47,079 nt of DNA from Nevskiaceae bacterium (GCA_050740195.1 JBOICR010000189.1:1-47079); one strand, 5' to 3'; positions 3,646 to 36,900 are shown, counted from the first letter of the stretch. Numbers and translations: made by a program. The notes: a model not told the origin generated them from the letters alone.

Positions 3646-3650
3646 AGAAC

Positions 3651-11224: not shown

Positions 11225-11273
11225 GGCTTGCCCTGTAATTGATGTCGGTTGTGTGAATACGCTGAGGCCGTGG

Positions 11274-12344
11274 TCACCACTTGAACCGCAGGCGCGCGAA
11301 TACGAGCGTGAACACGCACCACCCGCCGAGAACGACGATCTCGGCGTATAGCTTCGTGATGTTGTGGAATCCGACCGAGCCGAACAGCAACTCGCGCATC
11401 GCGGTGTTGAGCTGCGTCAGCGGCATCACGCGCGTGACGGTCTGCAGCCATTCGGGGAAGGCGCTCACCGAGAAGAACACGCCGCCGAGGAGGATGAGCG
11501 GCATCTGCACGAAGTTCACGATGCCGTTGAATGCAGTCACCGACGGACTGGCGGTGGCGAGTACCAGACCCAGGCCGAGGAAGGACACGCAGCCCAGCGT
11601 GATGACGACCAGCAGCAGCGGGTAGTTGATGTCGGCCGGTATGCCGAACGCCAGCACGCCGATCAGCATCAGCGCCATCGCGATGCTGTAGCACACCAGC
11701 AAGCGCGAGAAGAACAGGCCGGCCAGGAATGGCAGCGGCGAGGCGTCGATGGTCTTGATGTTCTTGAACAAGCCGTGATCGCGCTCCTCGATCAGCACGC
11801 CGCCGAAGCCGTTCAGGCCGACGATCAGCAAGGTCATGCCGATGAGTCCGGGCAGCAGCGTGACGAGATAAGAGGTGTAGCGGTTGGTCGGCAACTCGTG
11901 CAGCTGTGCCGGCGCCGCTTCGGCGGCGCGCAGCGACTCGTCGACGATCGCGCGAAGAGCCGTGTTCTCGACCTGGTTCTCGGCCAGCGAATTGGCGTAC
12001 AGCTCCCCCACGAAACCGCCCTTGGCCTCCGGCGCGGCGCGCAGCTCCAGGTAGTGCTTGACGTCGTTGTTCATCAGCGCCTGCTGCGCTGATACCTCGG
12101 GCTTGGCATACGGCACCAGCTGCACCAGGGCACGGCCTTGCAGGCGCTGCACGAAGGCTGCGCTGGCATCGGTCGTGGCCAGGTCGGCGTAGGCCACCGC
12201 GATCACCGGCTTGTCGCGCATCTGCATCGGATAGCCGACGCCCAGCAGTAGCAGCACCGGCAAGAAGTAGCAGAAGAACAGCGCCGTCTTGTCCGATTTC
12301 AGCTGCAGCATGCGCAGCTTCATGAATATCCAGCTCTTTTTCAC
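11274..12344 (-). CDS. ABC-2 type exporter permease
   Basis: 356 aa. TM1 (ALFFCYFLPVLLLLGVGY) is followed by a ~130-aa extracytoplasmic loop and then five further hydrophobic helices (..LVTLLPGLIGMTLLIVGLNGFGG.., ..FLAGLFFSRLLVCYSIAMALMLIGVLAF.., ..LLLVVITLGCVSFLGLGLVLA.., ..VNFVQMPLILLGGVFF.., ..IVVLGGWCVFTLVFA). GTG 12344 overlaps the NRPS stop (GTGA). ATG at 12323 is an alternative start. Confidence 0.85.
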   Translation of the reverse strand: MKKSWIFMKLRMLQLKSDKTALFFCYFLPVLLLLGVGYPMQMRDKPVIAVAYADLATTDASAAFVQRLQGRALVQLVPYAKPEVSAQQALMNNDVKHYLELRAAPEAKGGFVGELYANSLAENQVENTALRAIVDESLRAAEAAPAQLHELPTNRYTSYLVTLLPGLIGMTLLIVGLNGFGGVLIEERDHGLFKNIKTIDASPLPFLAGLFFSRLLVCYSIAMALMLIGVLAFGIPADINYPLLLVVITLGCVSFLGLGLVLATASPSVTAFNGIVNFVQMPLILLGGVFFSVSAFPEWLQTVTRVMPLTQLNTAMRELLFGSVGFHNITKLYAEIVVLGGWCVFTLVFARLRFKW

Positions 12345-15300
12345 AATGGCAGCTCCTTGCCCGTGTGCGACAGGAACACGTCTTCCAGCGTCGGGCGGTT
12401 GATGTCAAAGTTCACCACGTCGATGCACGCGGCATGGCTCAACGCGAGCACCTCGCGCAAGGTGTCGGTCACCCGCGGCGTGCGCAGGCGCAGGCAGTCG
12501 GTGCGCTCGTTCCAGTCAGCATCGGTGGCCTCCACGACGCCGTCGAGCATCTCCGGCCGGAACTGGCCGCGGCCGAACTGAAACTCGATCGAGTGGTGCG
12601 CGCCGAGATTCTTGGCCAACTGCAACGGATTGCCCTGCGCGATGACCCTGCCCCGGTCCATCAGCAAGATCTCGTCGCACAGCCGTTCGGCCTCCTCCAT
12701 GTAGTGCGTGGTGAGGATGACGGTCTTGCTAGGGTCCTGTTTCAGGTCCTCGATGAACTCCCAGGTCGAGATGCGGCTGTGCGGATCGAGCGCGGATGTC
12801 GGCTCGTCGAAGAAGATCACGTCCGGGTCCTCCAGCAGCGCGATGGCGATGGACAACCGCTGCTTCTGGCCGCCGGACAGCTCGTCCACCTTGAAGTCGA
12901 GCTTGTCCTTCAGGTCCAGCCGCTCCAGCAGCGAATCCGCCGACCGGCCGCGGCGCTTGCCGCCTACGGCGGCACGCAGTTCCTGGTAGAACTTGAGCAG
13001 CTGCGCCACCGTGAGGAACTGGAAGTAGTTGTTCTGCTGCAGTTGCACCCCAACGTGCGGTTGGATGCGGTGGATCTCGCTGGCCACGTCCATGCCGAGC
13101 AGGCGGATGGACCCGGACGTGATCGGAACGATCCCTTCGATCATGGCCAGCAGCGAGGTCTTGCCGGCGCCGTTGGGGCCGAGGATGCCGAAGCAGCAAC
13201 CCTGGCGCACCGAGAAGCTGACGCCCTTGACGGCTTCGAGATCTCCGTAGCGCTTGCGCACGTCGCGCACTTCCAGGGAGTAGACCGGGGCAGCGACTGA
13301 CAGCGGCGCAGCAGCGGCTCCCGCGGCATCTTCGTGCGCGACGTCGCCGGCCGGCAGCGGTGCGGTTGCGCCGACCTCGCTACCCGCCACGCTGCGCCTC
13401 ACCGCTTCGGAGTCGGCCGCATCGCCGCGGAAGGCGCAGTGCAGCTCCAAGCCCTCGGCGCCGACGGCAGCCTCGAACAGGATGCCGCGAAAGTCTTTCA
13501 GCTTGTCCATCAGGAATCCCCCGTCCGGCGCTGCGGACTGTTGCAGCGCGTCCGCCTGGAAATTGAAGAGCACCTCGCACTCGAGCGGCGGCAGCGTGCC
13601 GTCCCACTCGGAGCCTGCCGCTTGCGCCAAGCCGAGATAGTTGATGCCGAGTCTTTGCAGCAGCTGCGCTCTGGCCGCAAGTCGTTCCAAGGCGGTGTCT
13701 GCATCCACCGCAAAGGGCACCTTGTCCAGGAACAGGCCGACCTGGTCGAACCAGCGCTCGCCGCCCGACTCACGGCCATGGTGGTTGAGCAGCACGCCGT
13801 AGCGCGCGAGCCCGGTGAGCCGCTCGACGCAGCGTTTGAAGCATCGGAACGCCTGCTCCGCGGGCGTGCCGTCGGCGACGTCGAGCGGCAGGTGCAGCTG
13901 CAGGCTTTGCAGCGGGGCCTGGGCGCGGCGCAGCAGCGCATGCTGCGTGGTGTGCATCGTGGCGGCGAGATCGACGCGGGCTATGGCCGTGTTCAGCATC
14001 GCCGCGGCCTGCGCGTCCGGCAGCCGCCACACCGCATCGACATAGCTCCGGTAGTTGCGGCTGAGGCCGCCGGCGGTGCCGCGCAAGTGCTGCTGCAGGC
14101 GCTGCTGCAGCACCGCCGCCGACATGCCGTCCCAGACGAGATGGTCGACGGCCAGCAGCAGCCGGTGCTCGAGATCGCCCAGCGAAACCACCGCGGCGGC
14201 ATAGGCCAGCGGCGTGGTCTTTCTGGCGGCCAGAAGTTCGGCGCCCAGGCGTTTCAGCAGCTCACCGTGCCTCGCAGGATCGTGTGCGCTCAGGTCCACG
14301 GCCGGTATCGAGGCCGCCGCGATCGCGTCGGCCTCCAGCAAGCGCCACTGCGCCGGCGTGTCGTCGGGTGCCGCGCGCAACAGATCCTGCTCGGCGGCAA
14401 CGTCGGCAAACGCCTGTTGCAGCTCCGCCGCGGTGTACCAGCCTTGCAGCGCAACCATGTCGATCCTGTCACGGCTTTGCCAGGCCATCAGGTTGCGCTG
14501 GATCGGGCTGAAACGCAGGGAGGTCTCCACCGGCGCGTTCGCAAGCCGTTGCTGATGGACCTTCAGCTGCGCCCGCAACGCGTCGAACAACGCGGCCTCG
14601 GTCTGCACCGGCGCCAGCGCCGCAATGCCGGCCTCCCCAACCTGCTGCGACAGCGCGGCCAGATCATCGGCGTAGCGCACGAAGTGCGGACGCTGCTGCG
14701 GCTCCACCGTGGCGAGCAGCGTCTGCAGGGTCTTGCGCCGCGCGCTCTCGCTGCGATCGAGCAGCAGGGCGGTGCGCCGCGGGTTGCCGCCCAGCGTGAC
14801 GATCGCATGACGCCAGCCGTCGTCCAGCGGCCAGTCCGCTGCGCCATGCCGCTGCGCATCGATCGCCGCCGCGCAGGCGCTCACGGTGCGCAGCTGGTAT
14901 ACCTCGGTGACGCCGAGACTCATGCCCTGGTCCTTCCACCGGCTCAGCATGCGGATCAGCAACAGCGAGTTGCCGCCCAGATCGAAGTAGCTGTCGCCAC
15001 GACCGACCTGCGGCAGCTGCAGCAATTCCTGCCAGAGCGCGGCGATCGCGCGCTCGGTGTCGCTCTGCGGCGCCTCGTATTCAGCCCGTGCGAACGCGGC
15101 CGAGGTCGGCTCGGGCAAGGCCTTGCGGTCGACCTTGCCGTTGGCATTCAACGGCAAGGCGCCGAGCACGACGATCGCTGCCGGCATCATGTAGTCGGGC
15201 AGCTGCGCACGAAGGTGCGCCTGCAGCGCCTCGGCGCCGACGGGCGCCTCCAGCGTCACATAAGCGACGAGATGGTGATCGCCTGGAGCGCGCTCGCGTG

Positions 15301-18300: not shown

Positions 18301-21300
18301 GCTTGCCGTTCTTCGTCAGCGGCAGTTGTTCCAGGATCAGGATGGCCTGCGGCAGCATGTACTCGGGCATGGACAGCCGCATGAAGGCGCGTATCGAGGC
18401 CTTGAGCTCTTCCTCGCCGGCCGATGCCTGTGCCGGCACCACCCAGGCCAGCAGCCGCTGCTCGCCGCCGGTGCCGCGCACCAGCACGGCCGCATCCCGG
18501 ACCTGCGGGTGGGCCTGGATGCGACCCTCGATCTCGTTCAATTCGATGCGGAAGCCCCGCAGCTTGACTTGGCGGTCGCGCCGGCCAACGAATTCGATGC
18601 AGCCGTCGTCGAGCCAGCGGCCGAGGTCGCCGGTGCGATAGACGCGCCCGCCCTCGACCCAGGGGTCGGGGATGAACTGGCAGTCGGTGAGCTCGGGTCG
18701 ATTCAGGTAAGCTTGGGCTACGCCGTCGCCGCCGATCCAGATCTCGCCGGTCAGTCCCGGGGCGCACAGCTGACCGAGGCGGTCGACCACGTACATGGTC
18801 GTGTTGGAGATTGGCTTGCCGATCGACAGCGTCCGCCCTTTGAGCGCACCCGGCTCGCACACCCAGGCGGACGACAGGATCGTCGTCTCGGTGGGGCCAT
18901 AGCCGTTGATATAGCGGCAGCGCTCGCCCCAGCGCCGCACGAGCTCGAGCGTGGGAGCCGACCCCGCGGTCAGCAGCGTCAGGTCCGGCGGCACGAGCGC
19001 GGGATCCATCTGCTGCAGATAGGTCGGCGGGAAGGCGGCGAAGCGGATGTCGTGTGCGCACAGATACTGCGCAAGCGCGCGCGGGTCCTGGATCAACGCG
19101 TCGGCCAGCAGGTGCAGTTCGGTACCGGCGAGCAGTCCGGCAAAGATCTCGCCGGCCGAGGCGTCGAAGGTATAGGGCGCGAACTGCGTCGTTCGGTCGC
19201 CCGCCCGGAACAGGTCCACCTGCGTGCACCAGGAGCAGAAATTGACGAGGTTGCGGTGGGAAATCGCAACGCCCTTGGGCGTCCCCGTGGTGCCCGAGGT
19301 GTAGATGACGTAGGCGGTGGCCTGCGGGTCCACGTCGACCAGGCGGCCATCGGCATCATCGAGCTCGGCCGGACAGTCCTCCAGGCAAAGCAGGTTCTCG
19401 TCCGCCGGCGCGTCGCGCCCGGACCGTTGCGTCAGCGTGCAGCGGATGCCGGCATCGGCCAGCAGGAAGGCGCGGCGCTCCGGCGGACAGTCGAGCGCGA
19501 TGGGCACGTAGGCGGCGCCGAGACGCGTGACCGCCAGCATCGCGGCGACCAGCGTCGGTTCCTTGCGCAGGGACAGCGCCACGCGCGAGCCCGCCGACAC
19601 GCCGTTGCGGGCCAGCCAGGCCGAGAGGATGCGCACCCGTTCGTCCAATTGTTCATATGTCCACGTTTCCTCGCCACAGACGATGGCGACGGCCGCGCCG
19701 CGGCTGCGTGCCGTCGCCTCGAACAGCGCCGGCAGCGCGCGATCGCCCGGATATGCCACAGCCGTGTCGTTCCACTGCCGAACCGCCCGCTCCTGCTCGG
19801 CCTCGCTCAGAAGGGACAACTGCGCGAGTGTCTGCCCGCCGCCCCTGGCGAAACTGGCGAGCAACCGCTCAAGTCGGCGCAGCAGCGTCGCAATGGTCTG
19901 CGCATCGAACAGCGCCGTGCGGTAGGCCAGCTTGAGCGCCAGGCGCTCGCCGGGATAGACCGCCAGGTTCAGTGCGAAGTCGTTCTGCTCGACGCTCTCG
20001 ATGGCGACGATGCGGGGAAGATTGGCCGCCGCGGACAGCACCGAGCGGTCCAGCGGATAGTTTTCGACCACCACCAGGCTGTCGAACAGCGCCTGCCCAC
20101 CGCGCGCGCCGCTGCACCGCTGGATATCCGCCAGCGCGAAGTGGCCGTGGTCGTCGTGGTCCAGTTGGCGGCGCTGAATCTCCTTGAGCCAGGCGCCGAG
20201 CCTGCAATCGCCATCGATCTTCAGGCGCAGCGGCAGTGAGTTGATGCAGATGCCGACCAAGGATTCGCTGCCGGCGAGTTCCGGCGAGCGGCCGCTGGCG
20301 GCATAGCCGAACAGCACTTCCGGCTCGGCGTTGTACTTGCTCAGCAGCAACCCCCAGGCCGCAAACATCAGCGGGCCGAGGCCCACGCCCTCGGCGCGCG
20401 CGAGCCGCGTCAGCCGCGCCGTAGCCTCGACCGGCAGCATGCGCGTCTCCAGCGCCTGTTCGTAGTGCCGCGGCGGCGCCGCGTCATCGGCGCGCAGCGG
20501 TGCGAGCGGCAAACTCGCGCTGGCGGCGATGTCGAGGCCGTCGAAGTAGGCGTGCCAGTAACGTTCCGCCGCCGGCCGGTCGCGCGACTTCAGCCATTCG
20601 ACGTGATGCCGCCAGGCGGGCCGTGCCGCTGTCGCCGGTTCCGAACCGGCGTAGATCTCGAACAGTTCGTTGATCAGCAGCCCGATCGACCAGCCGTCGA
20701 GCAGCGCATGGTGGTGGGTCCAGGCCAGGCAATGGCCTTCGTCGCTCGTGCGCACCAGCAGGAGGCGCATCAGGGGCGCGGCCGCGACGTTGAATGGCTG
20801 CGTCCGCTCTTCCGCCAGCAGCCGTTCCAGCGCGTCCGCACCGCGGAGCGTCCGGCCGTCCACTTCGCGCCAGGGCAGCTCGACGCGCTCGCAGACCACC
20901 TGCAGCAGGCATGCCAGGCCGCAATCGACGAAGGCCGTGCGCAGCACATCGTGCCGCTCGAGCAGCGCCTGCCAGCTTTGCCGCAGCCGCGCCGCGTTGG
21001 CGCCGTCGAGCTCGATCCGCAGCTGAGTGAGATAGACCCCACTCTGCGGCGCGCGAGCACTGAACAGCAGCAGGCCCTGCTGCATGCCCGTGCAAGGGTA
21101 GACGTCCTTGCAACCGGGATAGCGCGACTTCAGCGCGGCGATGTCGACCGGCGCCAGTTCCGCGAGCCCGAATGCGTTCGATACGGCGGTGTCCGCCGTC
21201 CCCATGCAGTGCGCAACGATCGCGCGCAGGGCCTCTACGTAGCGCGCGGCCAGCGCAGCAATGGTGCCGTGCTCGAACTGCTCCCGGCTGTAGTCGAAGC

Positions 21301-27300: not shown

Positions 27301-29563
27301 TCTGCGCTTCCAGCGCATCGGCGTAGTCGGTCGGCTCGACCGGCGCGTCGATCTGCGCGAGGTTCGCGACCAAGCTGCCGTAATCGGTCTTGCCGTTCGG
27401 CGTCAGCGGGATGCGCTCGAGCCAGACGATCCGGTTGGGCTGCGCCCAGGCCGGCAGCAGCTGCCGCAGACGCTCACGCAATCCGTCCTCGGGCTGCTGG
27501 GTGCCGACGCAGAACGCGACGAGCTGCTTCGTCGCGGCCACGTCCACGGCAGCGACCGCCGCCTGGCGGATGCCGTCGATGGCCAGCAGCGCGGTTTCCA
27601 CCTCGCCTGGTTCAAGCCGGTGTCCGCGCAGCTTGATCTGGCTGTCCACGCGTCCGGCAAAGATCAGCTGGCCGTCGGCATCGAAGCAAGACAAGTCGCC
27701 ACTGCGATACCAGCGCATCCGATCCAGCGTGATGAAGCGTTCGCGCGTTAGCGCGTCGCGCTTGATGTAGCCGTGAGTCACGCCCTCGCCGCCGATCAGC
27801 AGCTCGCCGATCATGCCGCGCGGCAGCGACTGGTTGAAGCGGTTGACGACTCGGACCTCGGTGTTGCAGATCGGCGTGCCGATGACAATGGGTTCGTGCG
27901 CGCCCGGCGTGCGGCTTGCCTGCCACGCGGTCGACAGGATGGTCGTCTCGGTCGGACCGTAGGCATTGATGTAGCGCACGTGCGGCTGCCAGCGGCCGAT
28001 CAGCGCGTGGTCCGGCGTCGATCCTGCCGTCAGCAGCGTCTTGAGCTGCGGCAGCTTCGCTGGCGACAGGTGCTGCGCATACTGCGGTGGGAAGGCGGCG
28101 AAGGTCACACCTTGCTCGCTCATGTATTCCTGCAGGCAATCGGGATCGTCGATCAGCGCCGCCGACAGGATTACCAGTGTGGCGCCGTTGAGGATGGCCG
28201 TGTGGATCTCCGCCACCGATGCATCGAAGGTAAAGGGTGCGAACTGGGACAGCACGTCGTTGGCGCCGACCCACTCGCTCAGGTGCACGACGAAGTTCAG
28301 CAGGTTACCGTGGCTGACCTTGACACCCTTCGGCCTGCCGGTGGAGCCGGACGTGAAGATCACGTAGGCCGGGTCGTCGGTGCCGACGGCGACGACCGCG
28401 TCGGGCGACGCACCCGGTGTTGCCGGCTGCTCGTCCGCGACCAGGCACCGCACGCCGGACAAGGCGCTCCGAAGGATCGACGCCGCGGCCGCGTCGCCGA
28501 GCACCAGGCGCATATCGGTGTCTTCAGCCATCGCCTGCAGGCGCATCTCGGGCTGGGTGACATCCATCGGCACGAAGGCCGCACCCGTCTTCAGCACGGC
28601 GAGCTGCGCCGCGACCATCGCGCGGTCGCGGCCGAACGCGACGCCAACGTAGCCCCCGCGCTGCGCACCGGCGGCGCGCAGCGCCTGCGCCCAGGTGCCA
28701 GACAGCGCATCCAGTTCGGCGAAGCCGATGCTGCCGCGATCGTCGATCACGGCCGGCTTGTCTGGCGTCGCCGCGGCGCAGGCGGCGAAACGCTGCACGA
28801 GGTTACCGGCGATGGAAACCACCGGGCCAGCCATGCCCGCCTGCTGCATCCCGCGCGCATCGCCACCGTCGGTGCAGGTCTGAGCGGACAGCAGCGAGTG
28901 CGGGCGCTCGAGCAGCGCCACGATGAACTGGTGCCACAGCGTCATGAGGTTCCGCTGGTAGGCCTCGCTGTAGCGGCTGGCGGCGCAGGAGATGCACCAG
29001 GAGTCGCCCTCGCGCACAAGCGCGAATTCCGTTGCGATGTCCTCGGGGCCGGCCTCGAGCCGGATGGCGTGGCAACGCAGCGGGTCGAGCAACTCGGCAT
29101 GGTCCGGATCGCGCAGATCCAGCCAGTTCTCGGCCGGCGGCGCCCATTGCACGACCACGTCGGCGAGCAACTGCGCCAGCGAAGTCGCGGCGCCAACACT
29201 GGTGACGATCGGCCAGCAGGCGTGCGCGCGCTGTCCCACCAAGCACGTGGTGACCGGCTCGTCGGTGTAGCGCAGCCAATGCAGCACGCCGTGCCAGGCC
29301 GCCACGCAGACCTGCGGCGTCGCGTCGGCCGGGAAGGGTGGACAGGCGAGCACGCGGCGGCGGCCGTCGTCGCTGGCCCGCGCCGTGCCGTCGCCCTGCA
29401 GGCCAGCGAGATCGACGCCCTGGAAGCGTGACGTCGCGCTGTGAGTTTCCGTTGGCGGTTGTTCGATTAGCATGGTTCTGATTGCCTGTTCATGCCGCAA
29501 GGTCGGCGAAAAGTTTGGATACGCTCTGCAGGTTCCTGCCGAACTGGTTGATGGCCGGCGCAT
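12341..29563 (-). CDS. four-module NRPS with C-terminal ABC-transporter ATPase domain (halfC-A-T-E-C-A-T-E-C-A-T-C-A-T-Cterm-NBD)
   Basis: One uninterrupted 5740-codon frame. All core NRPS motifs are present (see domain entries). The probable true start is ATG 29473 (MLIEQPP..), 17 nt after the AT gene stop. The track start 29563 overlaps the AT gene by 74 nt. Confidence 0.95.
   Translation of the reverse strand: [5740 protein letters not shown]
12344..13285 (-). other. NRPS C-terminal ABC-transporter nucleotide-binding domain (DrrA/CcmA-like, ABC-2 partner type)
   Basis: [21 protein letters not shown], Walker A GPNGAGKT (DNA about 13160-13183), Q-loop VGVQLQQ, signature [12 protein letters not shown], Walker B [13 protein letters not shown], H-loop [10 protein letters not shown]. 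A ~100-aa C-terminal domain ends [12 protein letters not shown]. It is in frame with the upstream C domain, with no intervening stop. Confidence 0.9.
13409..14536 (-). other. NRPS terminal condensation-like domain (Cterm), active-site variant DHxxxDG
   Basis: [12 protein letters not shown] (C1-like), [18 protein letters not shown] (checked in DNA at 14121-14158), VLFNFQ. It is preceded by ~100 unassigned aa (14537-14857). Confidence 0.7.
14858..15061 (-). other. NRPS domain T4
   Basis: [16 protein letters not shown] (checked in DNA at about 14958-14995). Confidence 0.9.
15104..16591 (-). other. NRPS domain A4
   Basis: [82 protein letters not shown]. Confidence 0.9.
16664..17971 (-). other. 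NRPS domain C4 (condensation, LCL-like)
   Basis: [36 protein letters not shown]. Confidence 0.85.
18020..18232 (-). other. NRPS domain T3
   Basis: [16 protein letters not shown]. Confidence 0.9.
18284..19741 (-). other. NRPS domain A3
   Basis: [78 protein letters not shown]. Confidence 0.9.
19829..21106 (-). other. NRPS domain C3 (condensation, DCL-like)
   Basis: [39 protein letters not shown]. Confidence 0.85.
21194..22501 (-). other. NRPS domain E2 (epimerization)
   Basis: [42 protein letters not shown]. Confidence 0.85.
22559..22771 (-). other. NRPS domain T2
   Basis: [16 protein letters not shown]. Confidence 0.9.
22814..24301 (-). other. NRPS domain A2
   Basis: [79 protein letters not shown]. 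Confidence 0.9.
24374..25681 (-). other. NRPS domain C2 (condensation, DCL-like)
   Basis: [33 protein letters not shown]. Confidence 0.85.
25739..27061 (-). other. NRPS domain E1 (epimerization)
   Basis: [41 protein letters not shown]. Confidence 0.8.
27119..27331 (-). other. NRPS domain T1 (PCP)
   Basis: [16 protein letters not shown]. Confidence 0.9.
27359..28801 (-). other. NRPS domain A1 (adenylation)
   Basis: [78 protein letters not shown]. Confidence 0.9.
28859..29473 (-). other. NRPS domain: condensation-like C-terminal lobe only (aa 31-235), no HHxxxDG lobe
   Basis: [43 protein letters not shown] and [42 protein letters not shown] resemble the C4-C7 half of C domains. Nothing resembling C1-C3 lies upstream. 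Confidence 0.6.
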
Positions 29564-31388
29564 GCGGGATGCGGCCGCCGTAGCCGTGCTTGATGAAGCC
29601 GGCCAGCGTGCCCGAGGGGCCGAGGTCCACGAACCGGCATTCCCCGTCCTCGACCACGGCGTCCACCGGCCGACGGAAATCGGCGCGACCGCGGATCACA
29701 TCCCAGAAGTACGCGGCATCGCACTGTTGCAGCGCACCGCCGCAGGTCGTGGAATACAGCGGCAGCTGCGGCGCGCGCAGCGCGATGCCCTCGACGAACT
29801 GCTTGAACTCCGACTCGATCGGATCCACCGCGGACGAGTGGAATGCATGCGTCACCGGCAGCAGCAGCGAGACGACGGACAGGTCGTCCAGGCGCCGCTT
29901 CAATGCCGCGAGCGTCGCCTGCACTCCGCTGACGACGAAGTTCTGCGCGAAGTTCACGCTCGCCAGCGTGGTGCCCGCATACAGGTCGGGATGGCGTTCG
30001 TAGTGATGGACCGAGGCCAGGATGGTCAACATGCCGCCCCCGGGCGCGTGCTCGCACACCAGGCGCGCCTGCTTGACGACGACGGCCATCGCGTCCTCTA
30101 GCGAGAGGACGCCAGCAACCGTCGCGGCCGCGTACTCGCCGAGGCTGTAGCCCAGCACGCCGTCCGGGCGCACGTTGCCGTCGAGCAGCACCTGCGTCAG
30201 CGCGTAGCCGATGCTGAGCAGCGCCGGATGCGACAGCAGGATGTCGGTGAGGTCGTCATGCCGGCGCGCGTCGTCGTAGAGCTCGGCCAGCATGTCGCGG
30301 CCGGTGAGCGGGCGGTACATGCCCGCGCAGTCTTGCATCGCCTGCCGGAACACGGCGTTGTGCTGGTACAGCTCCTTACCCATCGCGTAGTACTGCGAGC
30401 CCTGGCCCGAGTACATGAAGATCGTGCGTGGCTTTCCGGATCGCGGCGTGGCAGTGTCCGCCTCCTCGCGCAGCACCATGGGCGACTGCCGGATCTTGAA
30501 ATGCAGGTTGGTCAACACGTCGCCGGGCCCGATCTCCGTCAAGGCGACCTCGCCGCGAGCGAGCAGACGGGACATGGATTCGTACCAACGCACGGGCTGC
30601 GTGATCTGGCGGATCAGCAGCGACTGGTAGTCCGTCTTCGGATACGGGCGCGCCGTGCAGTTGGAGATCACCTCGGCGGCGAGCGGCCGGAACGGCACGC
30701 CCGCGACGTAGGCGGCGAACTGTTCCTCCACCTCGCACATGAATCGCGAATGGAACGCAGCGCTGACCTTCAGCCGGATATAGCGCGCACCAGCGCCGGC
30801 GAACAACGCTTCGCAGCGCTCGATCTCGTCGTACAGCCCGGACACCACGATCTGGCTCGCGGAGTTCACGTTCGCGACATCGATGCGCGCGAATTCCGAG
30901 CGAGCCAGCAGCGCGCGCACCTGGTCCTCGCCCAGTCCGATCACGGCGGCCATGGCGCCTTTGGGCGCATGCGCCATCAGCTCCCCGCGCTTCGTCACCA
31001 ACGCCACGCCGGTGGCGAAGTCGTAGGCATCGGCCGCGCACAGTGCATTGAACTCGCCAAGGCTGTGACCCGCAAAGCACTGTGCTGCGGCGCCATCCTG
31101 CTCGCGCCTATGCAGGTAGGTCAGCGCGGAGACGACGAACAGCGCCGGCTGCGTGTATTGCGTCTGGCCGAGCAGTTGATCTGGATCCTCCAGGCACAGC
31201 CGGCGCAGCGAACAGCCGACGATCTCGTCCGCCTGCGCCACCAGCTGTGGATAGCGCGCGAACAGGTCCGCACCCATGCCCTTGAACTGCGATCCCTGGC
31301 CTGGGAAAACCCATACCGACGTCATGCTCATCGCTCTCGTCCTCGTCGTCGTGTTGGCGTGTTGATCGGTCCACGCGATCTCATGCAT
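29490..31388 (-). CDS. discrete tandem acyltransferase (AT-AT) for the trans-AT PKS
   Basis: 632-aa track ORF. The likely start is ATG 31331 (MSMTSVWVFPGQGSQ), preceded by GAGGACGAGAG. The track start 31388 overlaps the ACP gene. Two AT folds; see domain entries. Confidence 0.9.
   Translation of the reverse strand: MHEIAWTDQHANTTTRTRAMSMTSVWVFPGQGSQFKGMGADLFARYPQLVAQADEIVGCSLRRLCLEDPDQLLGQTQYTQPALFVVSALTYLHRREQDGAAAQCFAGHSLGEFNALCAADAYDFATGVALVTKRGELMAHAPKGAMAAVIGLGEDQVRALLARSEFARIDVANVNSASQIVVSGLYDEIERCEALFAGAGARYIRLKVSAAFHSRFMCEVEEQFAAYVAGVPFRPLAAEVISNCTARPYPKTDYQSLLIRQITQPVRWYESMSRLLARGEVALTEIGPGDVLTNLHFKIRQSPMVLREEADTATPRSGKPRTIFMYSGQGSQYYAMGKELYQHNAVFRQAMQDCAGMYRPLTGRDMLAELYDDARRHDDLTDILLSHPALLSIGYALTQVLLDGNVRPDGVLGYSLGEYAAATVAGVLSLEDAMAVVVKQARLVCEHAPGGGMLTILASVHHYERHPDLYAGTTLASVNFAQNFVVSGVQATLAALKRRLDDLSVVSLLLPVTHAFHSSAVDPIESEFKQFVEGIALRAPQLPLYSTTCGGALQQCDAAYFWDVIRGRADFRRPVDAVVEDGECRFVDLGPSGTLAGFIKHGYGGRIPHAPAINQFGRNLQSVSKLFADLAA
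29574..30428 (-). other. domain AT2: divergent AT-like domain (aa ~321-605)
   Basis: FMYSGQGSQYYAMG, GYSLGEYAAATVAG, VVKQARLVCE (the Arg does not align cleanly with the RGxLM motif), VTHAFHSSAV. Confidence 0.75.
30489..31319 (-). other. domain AT1: FabD-like malonyl-type acyltransferase (aa 24-300)
   Basis: FPGQGSQFKGMG, QTQYTQPALFVVS, GHSLGEFNAL, VTKRGELM (FabD Arg117-equivalent present), SAAFHSRFM. Confidence 0.85.
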
Positions 31389-31668
31389 CCGCGTGGCGTG
31401 CGGTTGTCTCAGCGGTGAGATCCAACTTGGCTTCCAGCAGGTTCACGACGTCGGCGAGCGTGTAGAGATCGCGCTTGCCCGAATCGGGCACGCGGATGCC
31501 GAGGCGCTGTTCGAGTTCGTACCAAATCTCCAGCATCTCGCGGGAGTCGATGCCGAGGTCCCCGCCCAGATAGAAATCCGGGTCGACAGAGTCGTACGTG
31601 AATCCCGTCTTCTTGATGTCGTTGACGACCTGCAGCAGCATGGCCATCGCGTCGTTGCGCTTGCTCAT
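31381..31668 (-). CDS. free-standing acyl carrier protein
   Basis: 95 aa, acidic, with the phosphopantetheine site YLGGDLGIDSREMLEIWYELE. Confidence 0.85.
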   Translation of the reverse strand: MSKRNDAMAMLLQVVNDIKKTGFTYDSVDPDFYLGGDLGIDSREMLEIWYELEQRLGIRVPDSGKRDLYTLADVVNLLEAKLDLTAETTARHADA

Positions 31669-31696
31669 TTCGTAGCCTCCAGTGGTATACCCAACC

Positions 31697-32941
31697 TTAC
31701 ATGCAACCCAGCTCGCGCGCCGCCGCGACGATCATCGCCACGGCCGTGTCAATCTCTTCGTGCGTGTGCGTCGCCATCACCGACAGTCGCAGTCGCGCCA
31801 GTCCCGGCGGCACCATGGGGTACTCCATGATGTTGGCGAACAGCCCGCGCATGTACAGCAGCCGGTTGATCCTGCGCACTATGTCGTCCTCGCGGAAGAA
31901 CACCGGGATGATTCCGGACTCGCCGCGGATGATCTTCAGTCCCGCCGCCTCGCAGCGGTCCTGCATGTAGCGCACGTTGCGGTGCAGCGTCGCGACGCGC
32001 TCGGGTTCGCGGTCCAGGATGTCCAACGCCGCGGAGATGGCCGCGATCGTCGGCTGGGCCAGTCCCGATGTGAACAAGTACGGATAGGAATAATTGCGCA
32101 GCAGGAAGATCATTTCCTTGCTGCCGGAGACGAACGCGCCCTGCGCTCCGATCGCCTTGCTGCACGTGGACATGCGCAGGTCGACCTGGCCGATGAGGTC
32201 GAGATGCTCCAGCGTGCCGCGCCCGGTCCGGCCGACCGTGCCGAGGCCGTGGGCGTCGTCGAGCACGGTGATGACCTCGTGACGCTTGCAGATCTCCACA
32301 TAGCGCCGCAGATCGATGATCGTGCCGTCTATCGAACGCACGCCCTCGACCGTCGAGAAGATCTGCACGTCCTTGCCGGCGCGCCGCTGGATCGTCTCGA
32401 GCAGGTTCTCGAACGCGTCCAGCTTCTCCGGATCGAAGGTGAAGAACTGCACTCCAGTCATCTTGATGGCGTTGACGACGCTGGCGTGGCTGTTCTTGTC
32501 GTAGACGATGATGTCGTTGCGATTCATCAGCCCATTGACCCAGCACAGGTTCGCCATGTAGCCGCCCGGCAGGAGCACCGCGTCGTCGTGGTCGGCCAGC
32601 TTCGCCAGCCGCTGCTCGAGGCGCTTGTGCTGCTGTGTGTAGCCGGAGAAGGCCGGCGAGCCGCCCGAACCGATGCCATAGCGGTTCACGGCCTCGATCA
32701 CCTTCTGCTTCACGTACGGATCGTTCGACATGCCGAGATAGCTGTTCGAACCGAAGACCAGCACGTCGTTGTAGACATCGCTGTATAGGTCCTTGTACTG
32801 CATCCGGCGATCGACGGGGCCGACGCCTTCACGGCCGGCCATGTAACCCTGCTCGAGCTCCTTGAGGTAGACGGAGTACTGGAAGGCCAGCCGCTGCTTG
32901 AACGGCTGCCGCTGAAGTTCGATCAACGCTCTGGAATCCAT
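31697..32941 (-). CDS. alpha-oxoamine synthase family PLP enzyme (AONS / serine palmitoyltransferase / KBL-like)
   Basis: 414 aa. LVFGSNSYLGMSNDP, GIGSGGSPAFSGYTQQHKRLEQRLA, LLPGGYMANL, NSHASV, VLDDAHGLGTVGRTGRG, PLP-Lys context MSTCSKAIGAQGAFVSG. Confidence 0.85.
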   Translation of the reverse strand: MDSRALIELQRQPFKQRLAFQYSVYLKELEQGYMAGREGVGPVDRRMQYKDLYSDVYNDVLVFGSNSYLGMSNDPYVKQKVIEAVNRYGIGSGGSPAFSGYTQQHKRLEQRLAKLADHDDAVLLPGGYMANLCWVNGLMNRNDIIVYDKNSHASVVNAIKMTGVQFFTFDPEKLDAFENLLETIQRRAGKDVQIFSTVEGVRSIDGTIIDLRRYVEICKRHEVITVLDDAHGLGTVGRTGRGTLEHLDLIGQVDLRMSTCSKAIGAQGAFVSGSKEMIFLLRNYSYPYLFTSGLAQPTIAAISAALDILDREPERVATLHRNVRYMQDRCEAAGLKIIRGESGIIPVFFREDDIVRRINRLLYMRGLFANIMEYPMVPPGLARLRLSVMATHTHEEIDTAVAMIVAAARELGCM

Positions 32942-32969
32942 GTTGCCCTTCCTTCTGTTCTGGGGAGAT

Positions 32970-33971
32970 CTAGGTTCGATCCTGCGTGCTGAAGTAGCCG
33001 TTGTGCCGGTACCAGTCCGCGCATTCGTGCAGCATCTGCCTCAGCGGCGGGCATGCGTAGCCGAGCTCGCGCACGGCCTTTGCCGAATCGAAGTGGTAGC
33101 TGCCGCCGAAGACGCGCATCCGGTACGGCTCGACGATCGGTTTTCCCGGCACCAAGGCCGGCAGCTTTTCCTGCAGCAGCGCCTTGACGTACAGCCACGT
33201 GTAGTTCGTGCGCGGCATGCCGCAGGACTTGCCCAGGACCTTCGCGGCTGTCTCGATGAACTCGACGTAGCTCGCGTTCTCGCCGCCGAGGATGTAGCGC
33301 TCGCCGCAGCGGCCGCGCGTCAGCGCGCTCACATGCGCGCGTCCGACCTCGGTCGCGGCGCAGAAGCTGCCGCCTCCCGGCGGCACGAACGGCACCTGGT
33401 CGTGGTACACGGCCAGGACCATGCGGCCCCATTGCAAGGTGTAGTCGTAGGGACCGACGACTTCGGCGGGATTGAGGATGATGCACTCCACGCCGCGCGG
33501 CGGTGCGGACAGGACGATCTCCTCCGCGCGCCGCTTCGTGATCGCGTAGGGGCTGCGCGCGCGGAATCCGCGCAGCGGCGCTGTCTCGTCCGCAGGCTGG
33601 TCGACGCCGGCGGTCGCGCCGATCGTCGACGTCGTGCTGGTGTAGACGATGCGGGAGACACCGTTCGCAATCGCCGCGTCGACGACGTTCTGCGTGCCGT
33701 GCACGTTGGCCGCCATCAGCGCCGGCAGGTCGCGCCGGTTACAGCTCGTGTTGCCGGCGGTGTGGATCACCGCCTGCGCGCCGCGCATGGCGGCAGTCAC
33801 GGCGGCGACGTCGTCCAGCGACCCGCGCACGATGTGGACGCCGAACGGCTCCAGGAACGACGTGTTCGAGCCGGCCCTGATGTAGGCGGTGACACGGTAC
33901 CCCGCCGCAACCAGCGCGGTGACGATGTTGAGGCCGACGAAGCCGTTGGCCCCGGTCATGAAGACGTCCAT
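32970..33971 (-). CDS. NAD(P)-dependent extended SDR (epimerase/dehydratase, 3-beta-HSD/DFR-like reductase)
   Basis: Rossmann motif FMTGANGFVGLNIV, catalytic SPYAITK (YxxxK). ATG 33971 overlaps the PKS stop (TGATG). The track start 33974 is a TTG one codon upstream. Confidence 0.85.
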   Translation of the reverse strand: MDVFMTGANGFVGLNIVTALVAAGYRVTAYIRAGSNTSFLEPFGVHIVRGSLDDVAAVTAAMRGAQAVIHTAGNTSCNRRDLPALMAANVHGTQNVVDAAIANGVSRIVYTSTTSTIGATAGVDQPADETAPLRGFRARSPYAITKRRAEEIVLSAPPRGVECIILNPAEVVGPYDYTLQWGRMVLAVYHDQVPFVPPGGGSFCAATEVGRAHVSALTRGRCGERYILGGENASYVEFIETAAKVLGKSCGMPRTNYTWLYVKALLQEKLPALVPGKPIVEPYRMRVFGGSYHFDSAKAVRELGYACPPLRQMLHECADWYRHNGYFSTQDRT

Positions 33972-36900
33972 CAACGACCCTCCCCAACAGCATCCAGCGT
34001 TTTCCAGAACCGTTCACGGCCTTCGGACTTGGTACGCATGGCGAGCGCGGCAGGATTGCGTTCGGGATTCTTCGCCAGCCCCTCCAGCAGCACCTTGAAA
34101 TGATCGAGCACGGTTTCCATCGTGTCGTTCTCCGCGCACGCGGCCTTGTACAGCAGGTCGAGGGTCACGCGGTCCTGATGGATCGTCACGATGAGTTCCA
34201 TCGCGACCCGCGTCTGCGACGCGTATGTCTCCGAGGCGAGCGACCGCTCGGGCCGCAGCGAATCCGCAGGATCCGCCGCCGGCCGCTCGAACACGATCAC
34301 GCTGTCGAAGAGGTTTTCGACGCCGATCCAGCCCTCGATCCGCTGGATCGGGGTGTGCGCGTAGACCCGTTTGCGATCCAACTTGAGCTGCAGCGCCGGC
34401 AGCCAGCCCGAGATGCGCTCGCGCCCCACCGTACAGATGCGCACCGGTACCAGGTTGCGTATGCGCTTGGCGCCGGATCCCGTCGGTTCGCCCGCAACGC
34501 CCGCCAGCGGCGCGAACGCACGCAGAATGCCGAATTGCGCGCAACGCGCCTTGGTGTAGCGATTGACCAGGATTGCCCAGGCCGCGACGATCAGCGTTTC
34601 CACCTCGATGCGGTGCAACTGCGTGCAGCGCTGCAGCGACTCGGCCAGCTCTGCGTCCAGCGTCGCCGACACGCCATAGAGGTGTTGCTCGGCAAGCTTG
34701 TCGCCGGACCCGGCGTGTCCCAGGAGCAGCGCGGGCGCCAGCAGGAAGGTGGAGTCGGCGATATCGTGCAAGTGGTCGAGCCAGTACTGCCGCGCCGACT
34801 CGTCGCCGTCGGCGGTTGTGTCGCCCGCGCGCTGCAGCTCTGCGTGCAGCGACTGGTCGAGCTCCGCGGGGTCGCCACCCGGCTGGAACCAGGTCGGTGC
34901 AGCCTGTGGCGCGTCGCCGACGGACGACGGGATGCCACTGTCGTCTGTGCTGGCCGGCGTGTCCGCTGCCGCGGATGCCTGCGTCGCGAGCGGCGGCATC
35001 GATCCCCCAACGGACAGCCGGATGTCGCATGTCACGTTCTCGAACGGGGCGGAAGGAAAGGACACACGCCGCCGCCCGGCGCCGGCATGGATCCGCTGCC
35101 AGTCGATCGCGCACCCGCGCACCCAGAGCGAGGCGAGCTTGTCCCAGTGCCGCGCTTGCACGAGCGCATCAACGAAGCGCTCCCCCGCATCCCCTGCCAG
35201 CAGCTCCGACAGCGATTCGTCGGCGCGGCCGTGACCCGCGTAGACGCCACCGGCGTCGCCGCGGCCAAGGTACTTTTCGGCCTTCTCCACGAATTCACCC
35301 GTGTCTGCGGCGACGATCGCCAGGCGGTATTCGAAGGCGATGCGCCCAACCTGGCTCGAGTAGGCCAGGTCGGCGAAGCGCGTCGCCGCGGCGTCGTCGC
35401 GTCCGAGCTGTGCGCACACGGATTTCAGGTACATGTGCAGCGCCTGCGTGCTGCGTGCGGACAGCACGACGATGGCGGGCTCGCCCCGGGCTGGCGGCTG
35501 CGGCCGGCCGGGCGCATGCGACTCGACGACGACGAAGGCATTGGAACCGCCCATGCCGAAGGAATTGATGGCGGCCGCGCGCGTGCCGCGCGCATTAGCG
35601 CTCCAATCCTGCGCTTGGCGCGGGAAATGGAACGGTAAGGACTCGCGGTCGAAGGACGAATTCAACGACTTCAGTCCGGCGCAGGGCGCAAGTTTTCCGT
35701 GCCGCATACCGAGCAGGACCTTGATCAGCGAACACACGCCCGACGCCGCTTCCATGTGCCCCAGGTTTGCCTTGGTCCCGATGGCACAGAACTGCCGCGC
35801 CGTCGTGGACTGCCGCAGCGCATTGGCCAGGGCCTTGAGCTCGATCGGGTCACCCAGCTCGGTGCCGGCGCCATGGCTTTCGATATAAGTCAGATCCTCG
35901 ATGCGCAGGCCAGACTCGCGAATGCCGCGCGCCGCGGTCTCCTCGATGACCCGGAGATTGGGCACGTACGGCCCCGCGCCCGTGCCGGAATGGCTGATGC
36001 AGGAGGCGCGCAGCACGCCATGGATCTGGTCGCCGTCCGCGAGCGCGCGCTGCAGCCGCTTGAGCACGACTACGCCCACGCCTTCGCTGGGCACCAGTCC
36101 GTTCGTCCCCTCATCGAAGGTGCGTTCCCGGCCGTCCGGCGACAGCACCTTCATGTCCTCGAGCAGCAGGTACTTGCTCGGATGCAGGCTGAGATTCACA
36201 CCACCGGCCAGCGCCACGTCGCACTCGCCGCCGAGGATCGCCTTGCGCGCCAGGTGCACGGCCGTGAGCGAAGATGCACAGGCCGTCCCCACCATCAGAC
36301 TGGGCCCGCGGAAGTTCAGCAGGAACGAAATGCGGTTGGCGAATTCGCTGGTTACCGAGCCCGGCCCCAAATACTCGCCCCGGCGCTGGTAGAGCTCGGA
36401 CATGATCCAGGTGTGGTCCTCGTTCATCGCTCCGACGTAGACGCCGACGCGCTGCGCGGCGAGAGCGTCCGGCGTGTACGCCGCGTCCTCAAGCGCGCGC
36501 CACGCGCTGCGCAGCAGCACGCGCAGCTGCGGATCCATGCGCTCGGCGTCGGCCTGCGACATGCGGAACAGCGCCGGATCGAACAGAAGGGCGTCGCGCA
36601 GGAAGCCGCCGCGGTCGCAGCGACCGCGGCGCGCGTCGCGCCGTCCCTGCGCCGAGCGCGCGGCCACGACCGACCAGCGCTCCTCGGGAATGGGGACGAG
36701 GCAGTCGCGCCCCGCGAGCACGTTGTCCCAGAACTCCGCCAGGTCGTCGGCCAGCGGGAACTCGCCGGCCATGCCGACGATCGCGACGGCGTCCGTCTCG
36801 GCGGCGACGTCGGAGCGAGGGCGCGCGGCATCGTGCTTGCGCGAACGGGGCAACTCGGCAACGGGTGCGACGACGCTGCTGATCGCGATTGGTGAGACGC

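Follow-up and report, generated by a model that had tools for sequence, protein, structure and literature searches.

Solanimycin is a potent antifungal of Dickeya solani, and its biosynthetic genes, the sol cluster, are the closest described relatives of the genes treated here. In that cluster the polyketide synthase (PKS) SolA has the domain string KS-DH-KR-T-KS-DH-T-T-KS-DH-KR-T-KS, solC is annotated as an "aminotransferase", and in-frame deletions of solB (encoding a short-chain dehydrogenase/reductase, SDR), solC, solD (an acyl carrier protein, ACP) and solI (a P450) abolish activity, whereas deletion of solE does not (PMC9765074). Solanimycin A has the structure R1CO-Gly-Dha5-R2 (Dha, dehydroalanine), in which R1CO is an N-terminal 2-amino-3-hydroxy-hexadecahexaenoyl unit, that is, beta-(tridecahexaenyl)serine; from the MS/MS y-ion series and a cleavage at hydroxyglycine, this polyenyl unit keeps its C1 carbonyl and acylates the nitrogen of Gly (PMC10204066). 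Upon deletion of solB, CH3-(CH=CH)6-CO-CH2NH2, a C14-hexaenoyl aminomethyl ketone, is accumulated, and upon deletion of solF tetradeca-2,4,6,8,10,12-hexaenal, which the authors ascribe to SolB; in the route they propose, the chain is extended with malonate, oxidised at C2 by the P450, transaminated by SolC and reduced by SolB (PMC10204066). The subject of this work is a related cluster in a stretch of 47,079 nucleotides from a Nevskiaceae bacterium (GCA_050740195.1 JBOICR010000189.1:1-47079; "the window" denotes this whole stretch), in which a cassette encoding an extended SDR, an alpha-oxoamine synthase (AOS) and a free ACP lies between a trans-acyltransferase (trans-AT) PKS and a non-ribosomal peptide synthetase (NRPS). 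The most likely interpretation, to which we give about half of our confidence, is that this cassette turns a polyene polyketide into a beta-hydroxy amino acid that is then used as a building block by the adjoining NRPS.

The window and the sol cluster share an identical order of genes and domains, namely a terminal ketosynthase (KS) with half a condensation (C) domain, SDR, AOS, ACP, tandem AT-AT and NRPS (Table 1). The identities to Dickeya are 63-66% for the KS, 56% for the SDR, 71% for the AOS, 48% for the ACP and 54% for the AT-AT, and the Dickeya loci encode, after the PKS, an SDR of 334 residues, an AOS of 414, an ACP of 89, an AT-AT of 632 and the NRPS. A preliminary description of this DNA had named the three genes following the PKS as those of an extended SDR, an AOS and a free ACP, and both the motifs and the profile matches bear this out. 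The large genes of this cluster are all on the minus strand, and in the cassette the start and stop codons of adjoining genes overlap or are 15-30 nt apart. In the window PKS, Pfam and motif scans rendered the domain string KR-ACP-KS-DH-ACP-ACP-KS-DH-KR-ACP-KS, which matches that of SolA, the first KS-DH lying beyond the window edge; a PKS start listed at 47044 is an artefact of that edge, since the reading frame runs open to 47077 (46000-47079 region, minus strand). Moreover, SolF is colinear with modules 3-4 of the window NRPS, at residues 2996-4769 (37%, 1862 positions), from the C-lobe of C3 through A3, T3 and C4 to A4. The two clusters differ in other respects. The window NRPS is a single protein of four modules, two of which are extra modules on the upstream side; it contains two probable E domains, and its last A domain is of the diaminobutyrate (Dab) type. 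It has neither an FMO domain nor a SolG-type single Ser module (proposed to be iterative), and no thioesterase was found in it by the Pfam scan. Export would be served by ABC-2, HlyD and AcrB proteins in the window and by a MATE protein in the sol cluster. The SolF/G/H set of NRPSs (Gly module plus FMO, Ser module, Val module plus thioesterase) and the P450 SolI are thus not those of the window, which therefore holds a sister type and not the solanimycin cluster proper; SolJ and SolK were not seen in the window either.

Table 1. Features of the PKS, cassette, NRPS and neighbouring genes, in coordinates of the window
Feature	Position	Strand	Matches and remarks
trans-AT PKS, open reading frame	33971 to window end	minus	frame open to base 47077
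KS3, terminal KS of the PKS (= KS4 of SolA)	35465..36799 (about)	minus	TACASS, ESHGAGT, NLGHME
KS-AT-type flanking linker after KS3	35282..35473	minus	CurL-like_PKS_C 3.5e-12; RhiE-like_linker 1.5e-08
Half C domain, C-lobe only, PKS C-terminus	34040..34801	minus	Pfam Condensation positions 192-445 of 456, E=2e-12
Extended SDR (SolB homologue), proposed 3-keto reductase	32970..33974	minus	Epimerase family 1.4e-32; TGANGFVG, YAITK
AOS (SolC homologue)	31697..32941	minus	bioF 9e-88, KBL 3.5e-84, SPT 1.3e-82
Free-standing ACP (SolD homologue), 95 residues	31381..31668	minus	NCBIfam ACP models down to 3.6e-11; LGIDS
Tandem trans-acting AT-AT (SolE homologue)	29490..31388	minus	Acyl_transf_1, two matched stretches, E=9e-71; fabD 8e-120
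NRPS, 4 modules, single protein	12341-29473	minus	Pfam and motif scans
A1, closely related wide-pocket code	27389..28777	minus	code DAAALAAIL
A3, SolF-A1 orthologue	18302..19723	minus	code DAGALAGIL; A10 Lys present
Degenerate terminal C-like domain of the NRPS (DHLVWDG)	14087..14449	minus	weak Condensation match, positions 35-157, E=1.5e-05, under cut-off
ABC-2 family permease, 356 residues	11274-12344	minus	begins right at NRPS stop
Class-III aminotransferase and cupin_8 (JmjC-like) fusion, 769 residues	8915-11224	minus	
Sfp-type 4'-phosphopantetheinyl transferase	3291-4478	plus	divergent, just beyond efflux genes

The pyridoxal phosphate (PLP) enzyme of the cassette is, on sequence grounds, a member of the alpha-oxoamine synthase family (BioF/KBL/ALAS/SPT; PLP fold type I), neither an equivalog of serine palmitoyltransferase (SPT), BioF or KBL nor a transaminase. 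Family models, solved structures and aligned catalytic residues agree in this, as had been anticipated in the preliminary description, and the enzyme is not a generic aminotransferase. The scores were 294 bits against BioF (TIGR00858, cut-off 426), 283 against KBL (NF005394, cut-off 460), and 278, 244 and 190 against the SPT equivalogs NF047600, NF047599 and NF047603 (cut-offs 640, 500 and 670); being about equidistant from the three enzymes, this AOS therefore constitutes a subfamily of its own. Fifty solved chains of the family match it at 1e-10 or better, the top ones being ThAOS, Sphingobacterium SPT and Escherichia coli KBL (about 1e-54 to 1e-58), and the catalytic set is aligned with that of KBL (1FC4) and SPT (3A2B), including the PLP-stacking His (SHAS), DDAHG, the Lys of STCSKA and the carboxylate-binding Arg of ARLRLS. 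The set of loci used for comparison consisted of 37 loci from a scan of one genome per species plus two Dickeya loci (L001 and L002), and these catalytic motifs were invariant in 39/39 homologues. The AOS is also the only PLP enzyme common to sol-type and window-type clusters. To our knowledge, no member of the AOS family works as a transaminase. An exact-match look-up of the AOS sequence rendered no match, and in a full-text search of the literature no paper was found that joins solanimycin to an oxoamine synthase, or an oxoamine synthase to trans-AT systems.

The other two proteins of the cassette are as well conserved in their motifs. GxxGxxG and YxxxK of the extended SDR, about 330 residues long, are kept in 33/33 orthologues, and so is the phosphopantetheine Ser motif of the free ACP, for which the Pfam PP-binding match (18.9 bits) falls slightly under the cut-off. 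Chance can be excluded for the anatomy of the cassette because of the E-values in Table 1 and because every motif is kept in 31-39 orthologues. The SDR is matched, in both cases under the cut-off, by HpnA (3e-69) and by the 2-alkyl-3-oxoalkanoate reductase OleD (3e-32), and lies near the sterol enzyme SdmB, the matches to a thioester reductase (1e-15) and to cinnamoyl-CoA reductases (about 1e-10) being far weaker. Its likeness to OleD, a beta-keto-acid reductase, and the phenotype of the solB deletion suggest that it would reduce a 3-keto group beside a 2-amino group. The action of the AOS before the SDR, an order already proposed in the preliminary description, agrees with the amino-ketone obtained upon deletion of solB and with the final 2-amino-3-hydroxy unit (PMC10204066), and this logic, which is well supported, improves on the published annotation.

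By analogy with these relatives, the following route can be proposed. The PKS would build a conjugated polyenoyl thioester (C14 hexaenoyl in Dickeya). The AOS would then form a C-C bond between the carbonyl of this carrier-bound thioester and the alpha-carbon of a PLP-bound two-carbon amino donor, the acyl carrier being most likely the dedicated free ACP, as for proteobacterial SPT and AcpR. One carboxylate would be retained in this step, as in KBL or in the aminomalonate reaction of SphA, so that a free 2-amino-3-oxo acid is released, and reduction at C3 by the SDR would give beta-polyenyl-serine, which a dedicated A domain of the NRPS with a wide pocket (A3, possibly also A1) would adenylate, so that it enters the peptide like any other residue. 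We infer the C-C bond formation by the AOS, the release as a free acid and the re-loading by an A domain, and likewise which ACP donates the chain, what KS3 does and what the C2-N donor is. This route accounts for the AOS fold and its carboxylate Arg, for an otherwise orphan A-T module, for the missing C domain at the handover and for the variable position of the module concerned. The amino-ketone of the solB deletion is also accounted for, because 2-amino-3-oxo acids decarboxylate spontaneously, and it points indirectly to a Claisen-type condensation of an amino acid with an acyl thioester.

The A domains of the NRPS bear directly on this route. The protein opens with about 260 residues without Pfam match, followed by A1-T, C/E-type, C-A2-T, C/E-type and C-A3-T-C-A4-T; it closes with a degenerate C-like domain and, in the same frame, an ABC ATPase. 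Of its A domains, A3 stands closest to the first one of SolF (SolF-A1), with 57% identity versus 36-40% for A1, A2 and A4, and the specificity code of A3, DAGALAGIL, differs in its last residue from that of Dickeya SolF-A1, DAGALAGIM. Codes were extracted by alignment; the same run gave DILQLGL[IV]W, DVWHFSLID, DLYNNALTY and DATKVGEVG, which we take to be the standard codes for Gly, Ser, Cys and Asn, and on the strength of this recovery the extraction was counted as valid. The floor of the PheA pocket is made by Trp239 and Thr278, as known from the Stachelhaus code and from engineering of PheA W239. In the code of A3 and its relatives Asp235 and Lys517 are kept, presumably meaning an alpha-amino acid substrate, and positions 239 and 278 hold Ala or Gly; such a wide pocket fits an alpha-amino acid with a long side chain. 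Codes of this type were found in 25/33 loci with the cassette, the remaining 8 being short contigs or NRPSs that run out of range, and in 0/6 loci with an AOS without the cassette, only 4 of which had an A domain in range. The wide-pocket domain varies in position: it occupies module 1 in the sol-type clusters of Dickeya, follows a Cys module as part of module 2 in Xanthomonas (L014) and belongs to module 3 of the window NRPS. By elimination, SolF-A1 would correspond to the polyenyl-serine residue of solanimycin, and from its code A3, and possibly A1, is proposed to activate the polyketide-derived beta-hydroxy amino acid. Moreover, A3 is internal and preceded by a full C domain, therefore its residue should arrive as an adenylatable amino acid with a free amine and not as a PKS-bound acyl chain. 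In keeping with this, the PKS has no more than a C-lobe at its end, the NRPS opens with an A-T module, and no complete C domain linking the one to the other was found.

A free amino acid had been considered for solanimycin as well. The first A domain of SolF, for which no substrate is predicted, was said by the authors to possibly activate the free acid, with the objection that deletion of solF should then accumulate this acid (PMC10204066). The C14 hexaenal accumulated instead is, as we infer from the structures, the exact retro-aldol fragment (C3-C16) of polyenyl-serine, and could arise from the accumulated free amino acid by the action of a housekeeping threonine aldolase or SHMT; a retro-aldol origin of the hexaenal would therefore remove the published objection. 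The same metabolite can be read in the opposite direction, with the SDR acting as a cinnamoyl-CoA-reductase-like thioester reductase that forms the polyenal, to which the PLP enzyme would add a glycyl carbanion by an aldol reaction. Threonine transaldolases take Thr, not Gly, as glycyl donor, which would fit the labelling of solanimycin described below, and the hexaenal is a real metabolite, ascribed by its discoverers to SolB; the weak matches of the SDR to thioester and cinnamoyl-CoA reductases point the same way. Such an aldol route is nevertheless the least probable of those considered here, since the PLP enzyme belongs to the AOS family and not to that of SHMT and aldolases, the SDR is far better matched by HpnA, SdmB and OleD-type ketoreductases, and, as the amino-ketone formed without solB shows, the thioester itself is accepted by the AOS. 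It could also be the case that the intermediates never leave the carrier: an A domain would load a small amino acid on T, the AOS would C-acylate this aminoacyl thioester with polyenoyl-ACP, and the SDR would reduce the product on the carrier. A tethered reaction of this kind explains directly why the PKS stalls at the C14 thioester upon deletion of solF and why there is no decarboxylation in the wild type, and makes a free intermediate unnecessary. It is very unlikely all the same, as the A domain has a wide pocket and a code that resembles neither that for Gly nor that for Ser, and the AOS has retained the Arg for binding a free carboxylate; in addition, a glycine label would still be expected in the product. 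Nor do we know of any AOS that works on an amino acid bound to a carrier.

The terminal KS of the PKS, KS3, has to be placed in any of these routes. As the preliminary description had noted, it keeps the Cys/His/His triad and is diverged from the other two, with 46-48% identity to KS1 and KS2, versus 60% between these, and its closest solved structures are KS domains of trans-AT synthases. The triad is kept in 31/31 syntenic loci that include KS3. It was likewise correctly stated that KS3 has no carrier domain in cis and is followed by a linker and half a C domain only: no PP-binding match was found after KS3 in the PKS by the Pfam scan, and between the linker and the half C domain lie about 120 residues, rich in Ala, Ser, Pro and Asp, with zero Pfam matches. 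An intact KS triad, an AT in trans and a separately encoded ACP are all present, as in a split trans-AT module, with the genes of the SDR and the AOS intervening between those of KS3 and the free ACP and with the half C domain trailing KS3. The half C domain has its best solved-structure matches in the C-lobes of the C domains of McyB and PvdL, is present in the syntenic loci at 21-58% identity, and no HHxxxDG motif was found in it. That this domain and the N-terminus of the NRPS might be two halves of one C domain was considered and rejected, as both look like C-lobe pieces; the end of the NRPS N-terminal region aligns weakly with the end of that of SolF, whose N-terminus matches the C-lobe side of C3, and because of this alignment the region reads as a remnant of a C-lobe and not as the missing N-lobe. 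In a protein search with KS3 and the half C domain only fragments of up to about 1100 residues were matched, and no full-length PKS, and a scan of metagenomes with the PKS N-terminus rendered a single irrelevant locus.

Several observations weigh against the formation of polyenyl-serine by the AOS as a free acid. Label from [13C2]- and [2H2]-glycine was heavy in the Gly and Dha of solanimycin and reportedly almost absent from the N-terminal unit, which according to the authors excludes glycine as the source of C1, C2 and N, although they describe the MS/MS read-out as approximate, and free polyenyl-serine was not reported in the solF deletion (PMC10204066). The P450 SolI is essential and its deletion mutant is also pigmented, which fits a route by oxidation and transamination (PMC9765074). 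Two A domains of the window, A1 and A3, bear the wide-pocket code, which would mean that the residue enters the peptide twice or that the code has a broader specificity than supposed. Finally, the two His of KS3, kept in every orthologue, suggest decarboxylative elongation onto the free ACP rather than a mere hand-over of the chain. If KS3 and the free ACP were to add the last malonate, C1 and C2 would be derived from acetate and the nitrogen would enter without new carbon, which is not AOS chemistry. With regard to the labelling, free glycine and glycine-derived serine would be poor C2-N donors, because the N-terminal unit was unlabelled, unless the approximate read-out misleads; as labelled glycine and serine did not enter the unit in Dickeya, an alternative donor was considered, and the glycyl carbanion may come, for example, from threonine-derived 2-amino-3-ketobutyrate in a trans-Claisen reaction of the KBL type.

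Several of these observations fit the route published for solanimycin, adapted to the window. A KS, possibly KS3 with the free ACP, would extend a C14 chain with malonate to a C16 3-oxo-thioester, C2 would be oxidised (by SolI in Dickeya), the PLP enzyme would act as a transaminase and the SDR as a reductase on the carrier, and the product would be transferred directly to the NRPS. It agrees with the lack of label from glycine and serine in the N-terminal unit, with the intact triad of KS3 and the essential free ACP, and with the essential P450 and the pigmented solI mutant, and it renders the amino-ketone as a shunt product of hydrolysis and decarboxylation. We consider it unlikely, since every model and every active-site residue mark the PLP enzyme as an AOS, since the A-T loading module (SolF-A1, A3) is left without substrate and no full C domain is available for direct handover, and since an internal domain of the SolF-A1 type, as in the window NRPS and in L014, is left unexplained. 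In addition, no P450 was seen in the 34 kb downstream of the PKS in the window, the upstream side of the PKS lying outside it. Judged by the chain length of the shunt products in Dickeya, elongation fits only where the step after it brings in nitrogen but no further carbon. In this respect the first step proposed in the preliminary description, in which KS3 passes or extends the chain onto the free ACP before the AOS acts, is only partly sustained: a catalytically competent KS3 (triad in 31/31 loci) beside a free ACP is plausible, but elongation before an AOS reaction would make the chain two carbons too long for the shunt product.

The proposed formation of polyenyl-serine by an AOS has parallels in other systems. 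In fungal sphingofungin biosynthesis, the AOS SphA, which uses aminomalonate, and the 3-ketoreductase SphF make a 2-amino-3-hydroxy acid from the product of SphB, a PKS without thioesterase (PMC10936153). The likeness lies in the release of a polyketide thioester by an AOS that retains one carboxylate, followed by reduction at C3; on the other hand, the system is eukaryotic, its PKS is iterative and cis-AT, its product is not handed to an NRPS, and SphA is only distantly related to the window AOS, with a solved-structure match of 7e-26 compared with about 1e-58 for bacterial KBL and SPT. SgaAB of Pseudomonas fluorescens consists of an iterative PKS and an AOS with SPT activity that condenses serine with decarboxylation to yield sphinganines (PMC12134224); there, too, a stand-alone AOS off-loads a bacterial PKS product, in a two-gene system without NRPS and without the free ACP, SDR and AT-AT block. 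SphA/SphF and SgaAB may thus serve as functional precedents for the cassette. KBL is among the closest solved relatives of the AOS (1FC4, 9e-54), with all active-site residues aligned. It joins glycine to an acyl thioester without loss of the carboxylate, which is the outcome needed for the window AOS in our proposal; it differs in that the window AOS scores 283 bits against the KBL cut-off of 460, the acyl substrate proposed here is a long, carrier-bound polyene and the labelling disfavours free glycine. The Bmt route of cyclosporin proceeds through a PKS acid, a P450 and an aminotransferase to loading by an A domain (cited in PMC10204066). In this route a polyketide is also made off-line into an alpha-amino acid and then activated by an NRPS, the nitrogen coming from oxidation and a true transaminase and not from an AOS.

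The parallel with bacterial sphingolipids was the origin of a further proposal, made in the preliminary description, in which the AOS would act with decarboxylation on Ser, Ala or Gly, the SDR would give a sphingoid amino alcohol, and the terminal C-like domain of the NRPS would use the new amine as its nucleophile, so that the peptide is amidated at its C-terminus in a convergent pathway. In the core of proteobacterial sphingolipid synthesis, studied in Caulobacter, Spt preferentially takes its acyl group from the specialised ACP AcpR, and the set also includes a dehydrogenase (PMC11324152). The association of an AOS with a dedicated small ACP had rightly been compared to these SPTs (PMC11324152); an NAD(P)-dependent reductase gene completes the likeness, and Spt/AcpR may be taken as a precedent for a free ACP as acyl donor. 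As differences, the window AOS falls under three SPT cut-offs, the acyl chain is PKS-derived, and there is no acyl-ACP synthetase or ceramide synthase in the window. The sphingoid proposal is also in keeping with an NRPS that has no thioesterase and ends in a C-like domain keeping DHxxxDG, with the shunt product of the solB deletion, which is formally the decarboxylative product of glycine, and with distant AOS homologues that adjoin NRPSs with a C domain at their end and an ABC ATPase gene after it. It hardly seems probable, since the unit of solanimycin, a C16 beta-hydroxy-alpha-amino acid and not a decarboxylated amino alcohol, keeps its C1 carbonyl and acylates the Gly nitrogen at the N-terminus, and the AOS is under every SPT equivalog cut-off. 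A dedicated wide-pocket A domain, internal in the window NRPS, co-occurs with the cassette; with the unit at the peptide N-terminus in solanimycin and the A3 orthologue internal, C-terminal amidation is disfavoured by homology, which does not amount to disproof.

The cassette is widely distributed. KS and half C domain, SDR, AOS, ACP and, where the contig reaches, AT-AT were found in 33 loci in the same order, except for two metagenome-assembled genomes of Burkholderiaceae in which the AT-AT is ahead of the SDR, and the taxa concerned, from several orders of Proteobacteria, include Lysobacterales, Oxalobacteraceae, Enterobacterales, Cellvibrio and Gynuella. Homologues of the AOS with 70-93% identity are present in Lysobacter, Collimonas, Xanthomonas, Rouxiella, Erwinia, Dickeya, Gynuella, Teredinibacter and numerous metagenomes. 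In every case the AOS is more strongly conserved than its neighbours in the cassette (68-82% identity, compared with 40-73%). The G+C content is 0.65 in the cassette region (window 30001-34000), versus 0.68-0.70 in the flanking PKS and NRPS, and the slightly lower G+C together with the stronger conservation of the AOS is compatible with a cassette that moves as a unit between clusters. Clusters of the window type, with a four-module NRPS whose C-like end is fused to an ABC ATPase, were found in Lysobacterales, Oxalobacteraceae and Cellvibrio, and an A1-type code is that of the first A domain in window-type loci (L003-L011, L016-L019, L024, L025, L028, L039). Carenaemin of Collimonas was considered as a related product and discarded, as it is made by a different (cpl) cluster; the lysohexaenetides of Lysobacter are reportedly products of an iterative PKS and are not equated here with those of the window cluster.

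Both the cassette, as part of a published cluster family, and the off-loading of polyketides by AOS enzymes were already known. The recognition of the SolC-type enzyme as an AOS, the re-entry of its product through a dedicated A domain at variable module positions and the cluster type of the window are new. Thus, the origin of the polyenyl-serine of solanimycin, for which a transaminase role had been published for an AOS-type protein, gains a concrete mechanism, and one that would concern a large group of clusters in Lysobacter, Collimonas, Xanthomonas, Cellvibrio and others. Whether the whole amounts to a new PKS-NRPS interface without handover by a C domain, in which AOS off-loading with the carboxylate kept and reduction by the SDR are followed by re-activation of polyenyl-serine at any position by A domains with a bottomless pocket, possibly with a novel donor, is a tentative and rather doubtful proposition. 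If true, a trans-Claisen reaction with 2-amino-3-ketobutyrate would be new chemistry for the AOS family. If the mechanism proposed above is borne out, the cassette would offer peptide engineering a portable means of making lipidic beta-hydroxy amino acids from polyketide thioesters.

Six more distant AOS homologues (55-63% identity) are found without the PKS, the SDR and the ACP, at least three of them in a setting of NRPS, ABC and LolA-like genes. In L034 (6588-12263; also in L035 and L038; Chitiniphilus, Lautropia) the AOS, at 55-60% identity, lies downstream of genes for an NRPS and an ABC ATPase. The NRPS of L034 has a partial C domain at its end; there, genes for an FtsX/MacB-type permease and a LolA-like protein precede the AOS and an acyl-CoA-dehydrogenase-like gene follows it. 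Use of this AOS clade thus extends to contexts of NRPS and lipid export alone. In Cellvibrio (L025, 13497-17046) and in a Burkholderiaceae locus (L031, 11588-16615) the cassette is directly followed by inserted genes for an MMPL/RND transporter and a LolA-like protein, and in L031 also for a DUF1302 protein; sets of this kind typically serve lipid export to the outer membrane, which hints at membrane-associated lipids as products.

Downstream of T4, the window NRPS (12341-14803, minus strand) continues through the C-like domain in the same frame into a complete ABC ATPase (ABC_tran 12794-13228; Walker A GPNGAGKT), while the equivalent ATPase of Chitiniphilus (L034) is a separate gene overlapping the NRPS stop; the fusion in the window could be genuine or could stem from a lost stop codon. 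The NRPS is followed by genes for the ABC-2 permease, the class-III aminotransferase-cupin fusion, HlyD and AcrB. An open reading frame of 395 residues at 11221-12408 is spurious, being Arg/Ala-rich, with no hydrophobic segments and no Pfam match, and the ABC-2 permease in another frame is the true gene. The code of the last A domain (A4), DIWEMTADD, resembles what we take to be the Dab code, and the aminotransferase-cupin fusion may supply (hydroxy-)Dab. As an aminating enzyme of the cassette this fusion was considered and set aside, since it is not in the published list of sol genes and adjoins a Dab-type A domain, so that a supply of Dab is likelier. The phosphopantetheinyl transferase presumably serves the many carrier domains of the cluster.

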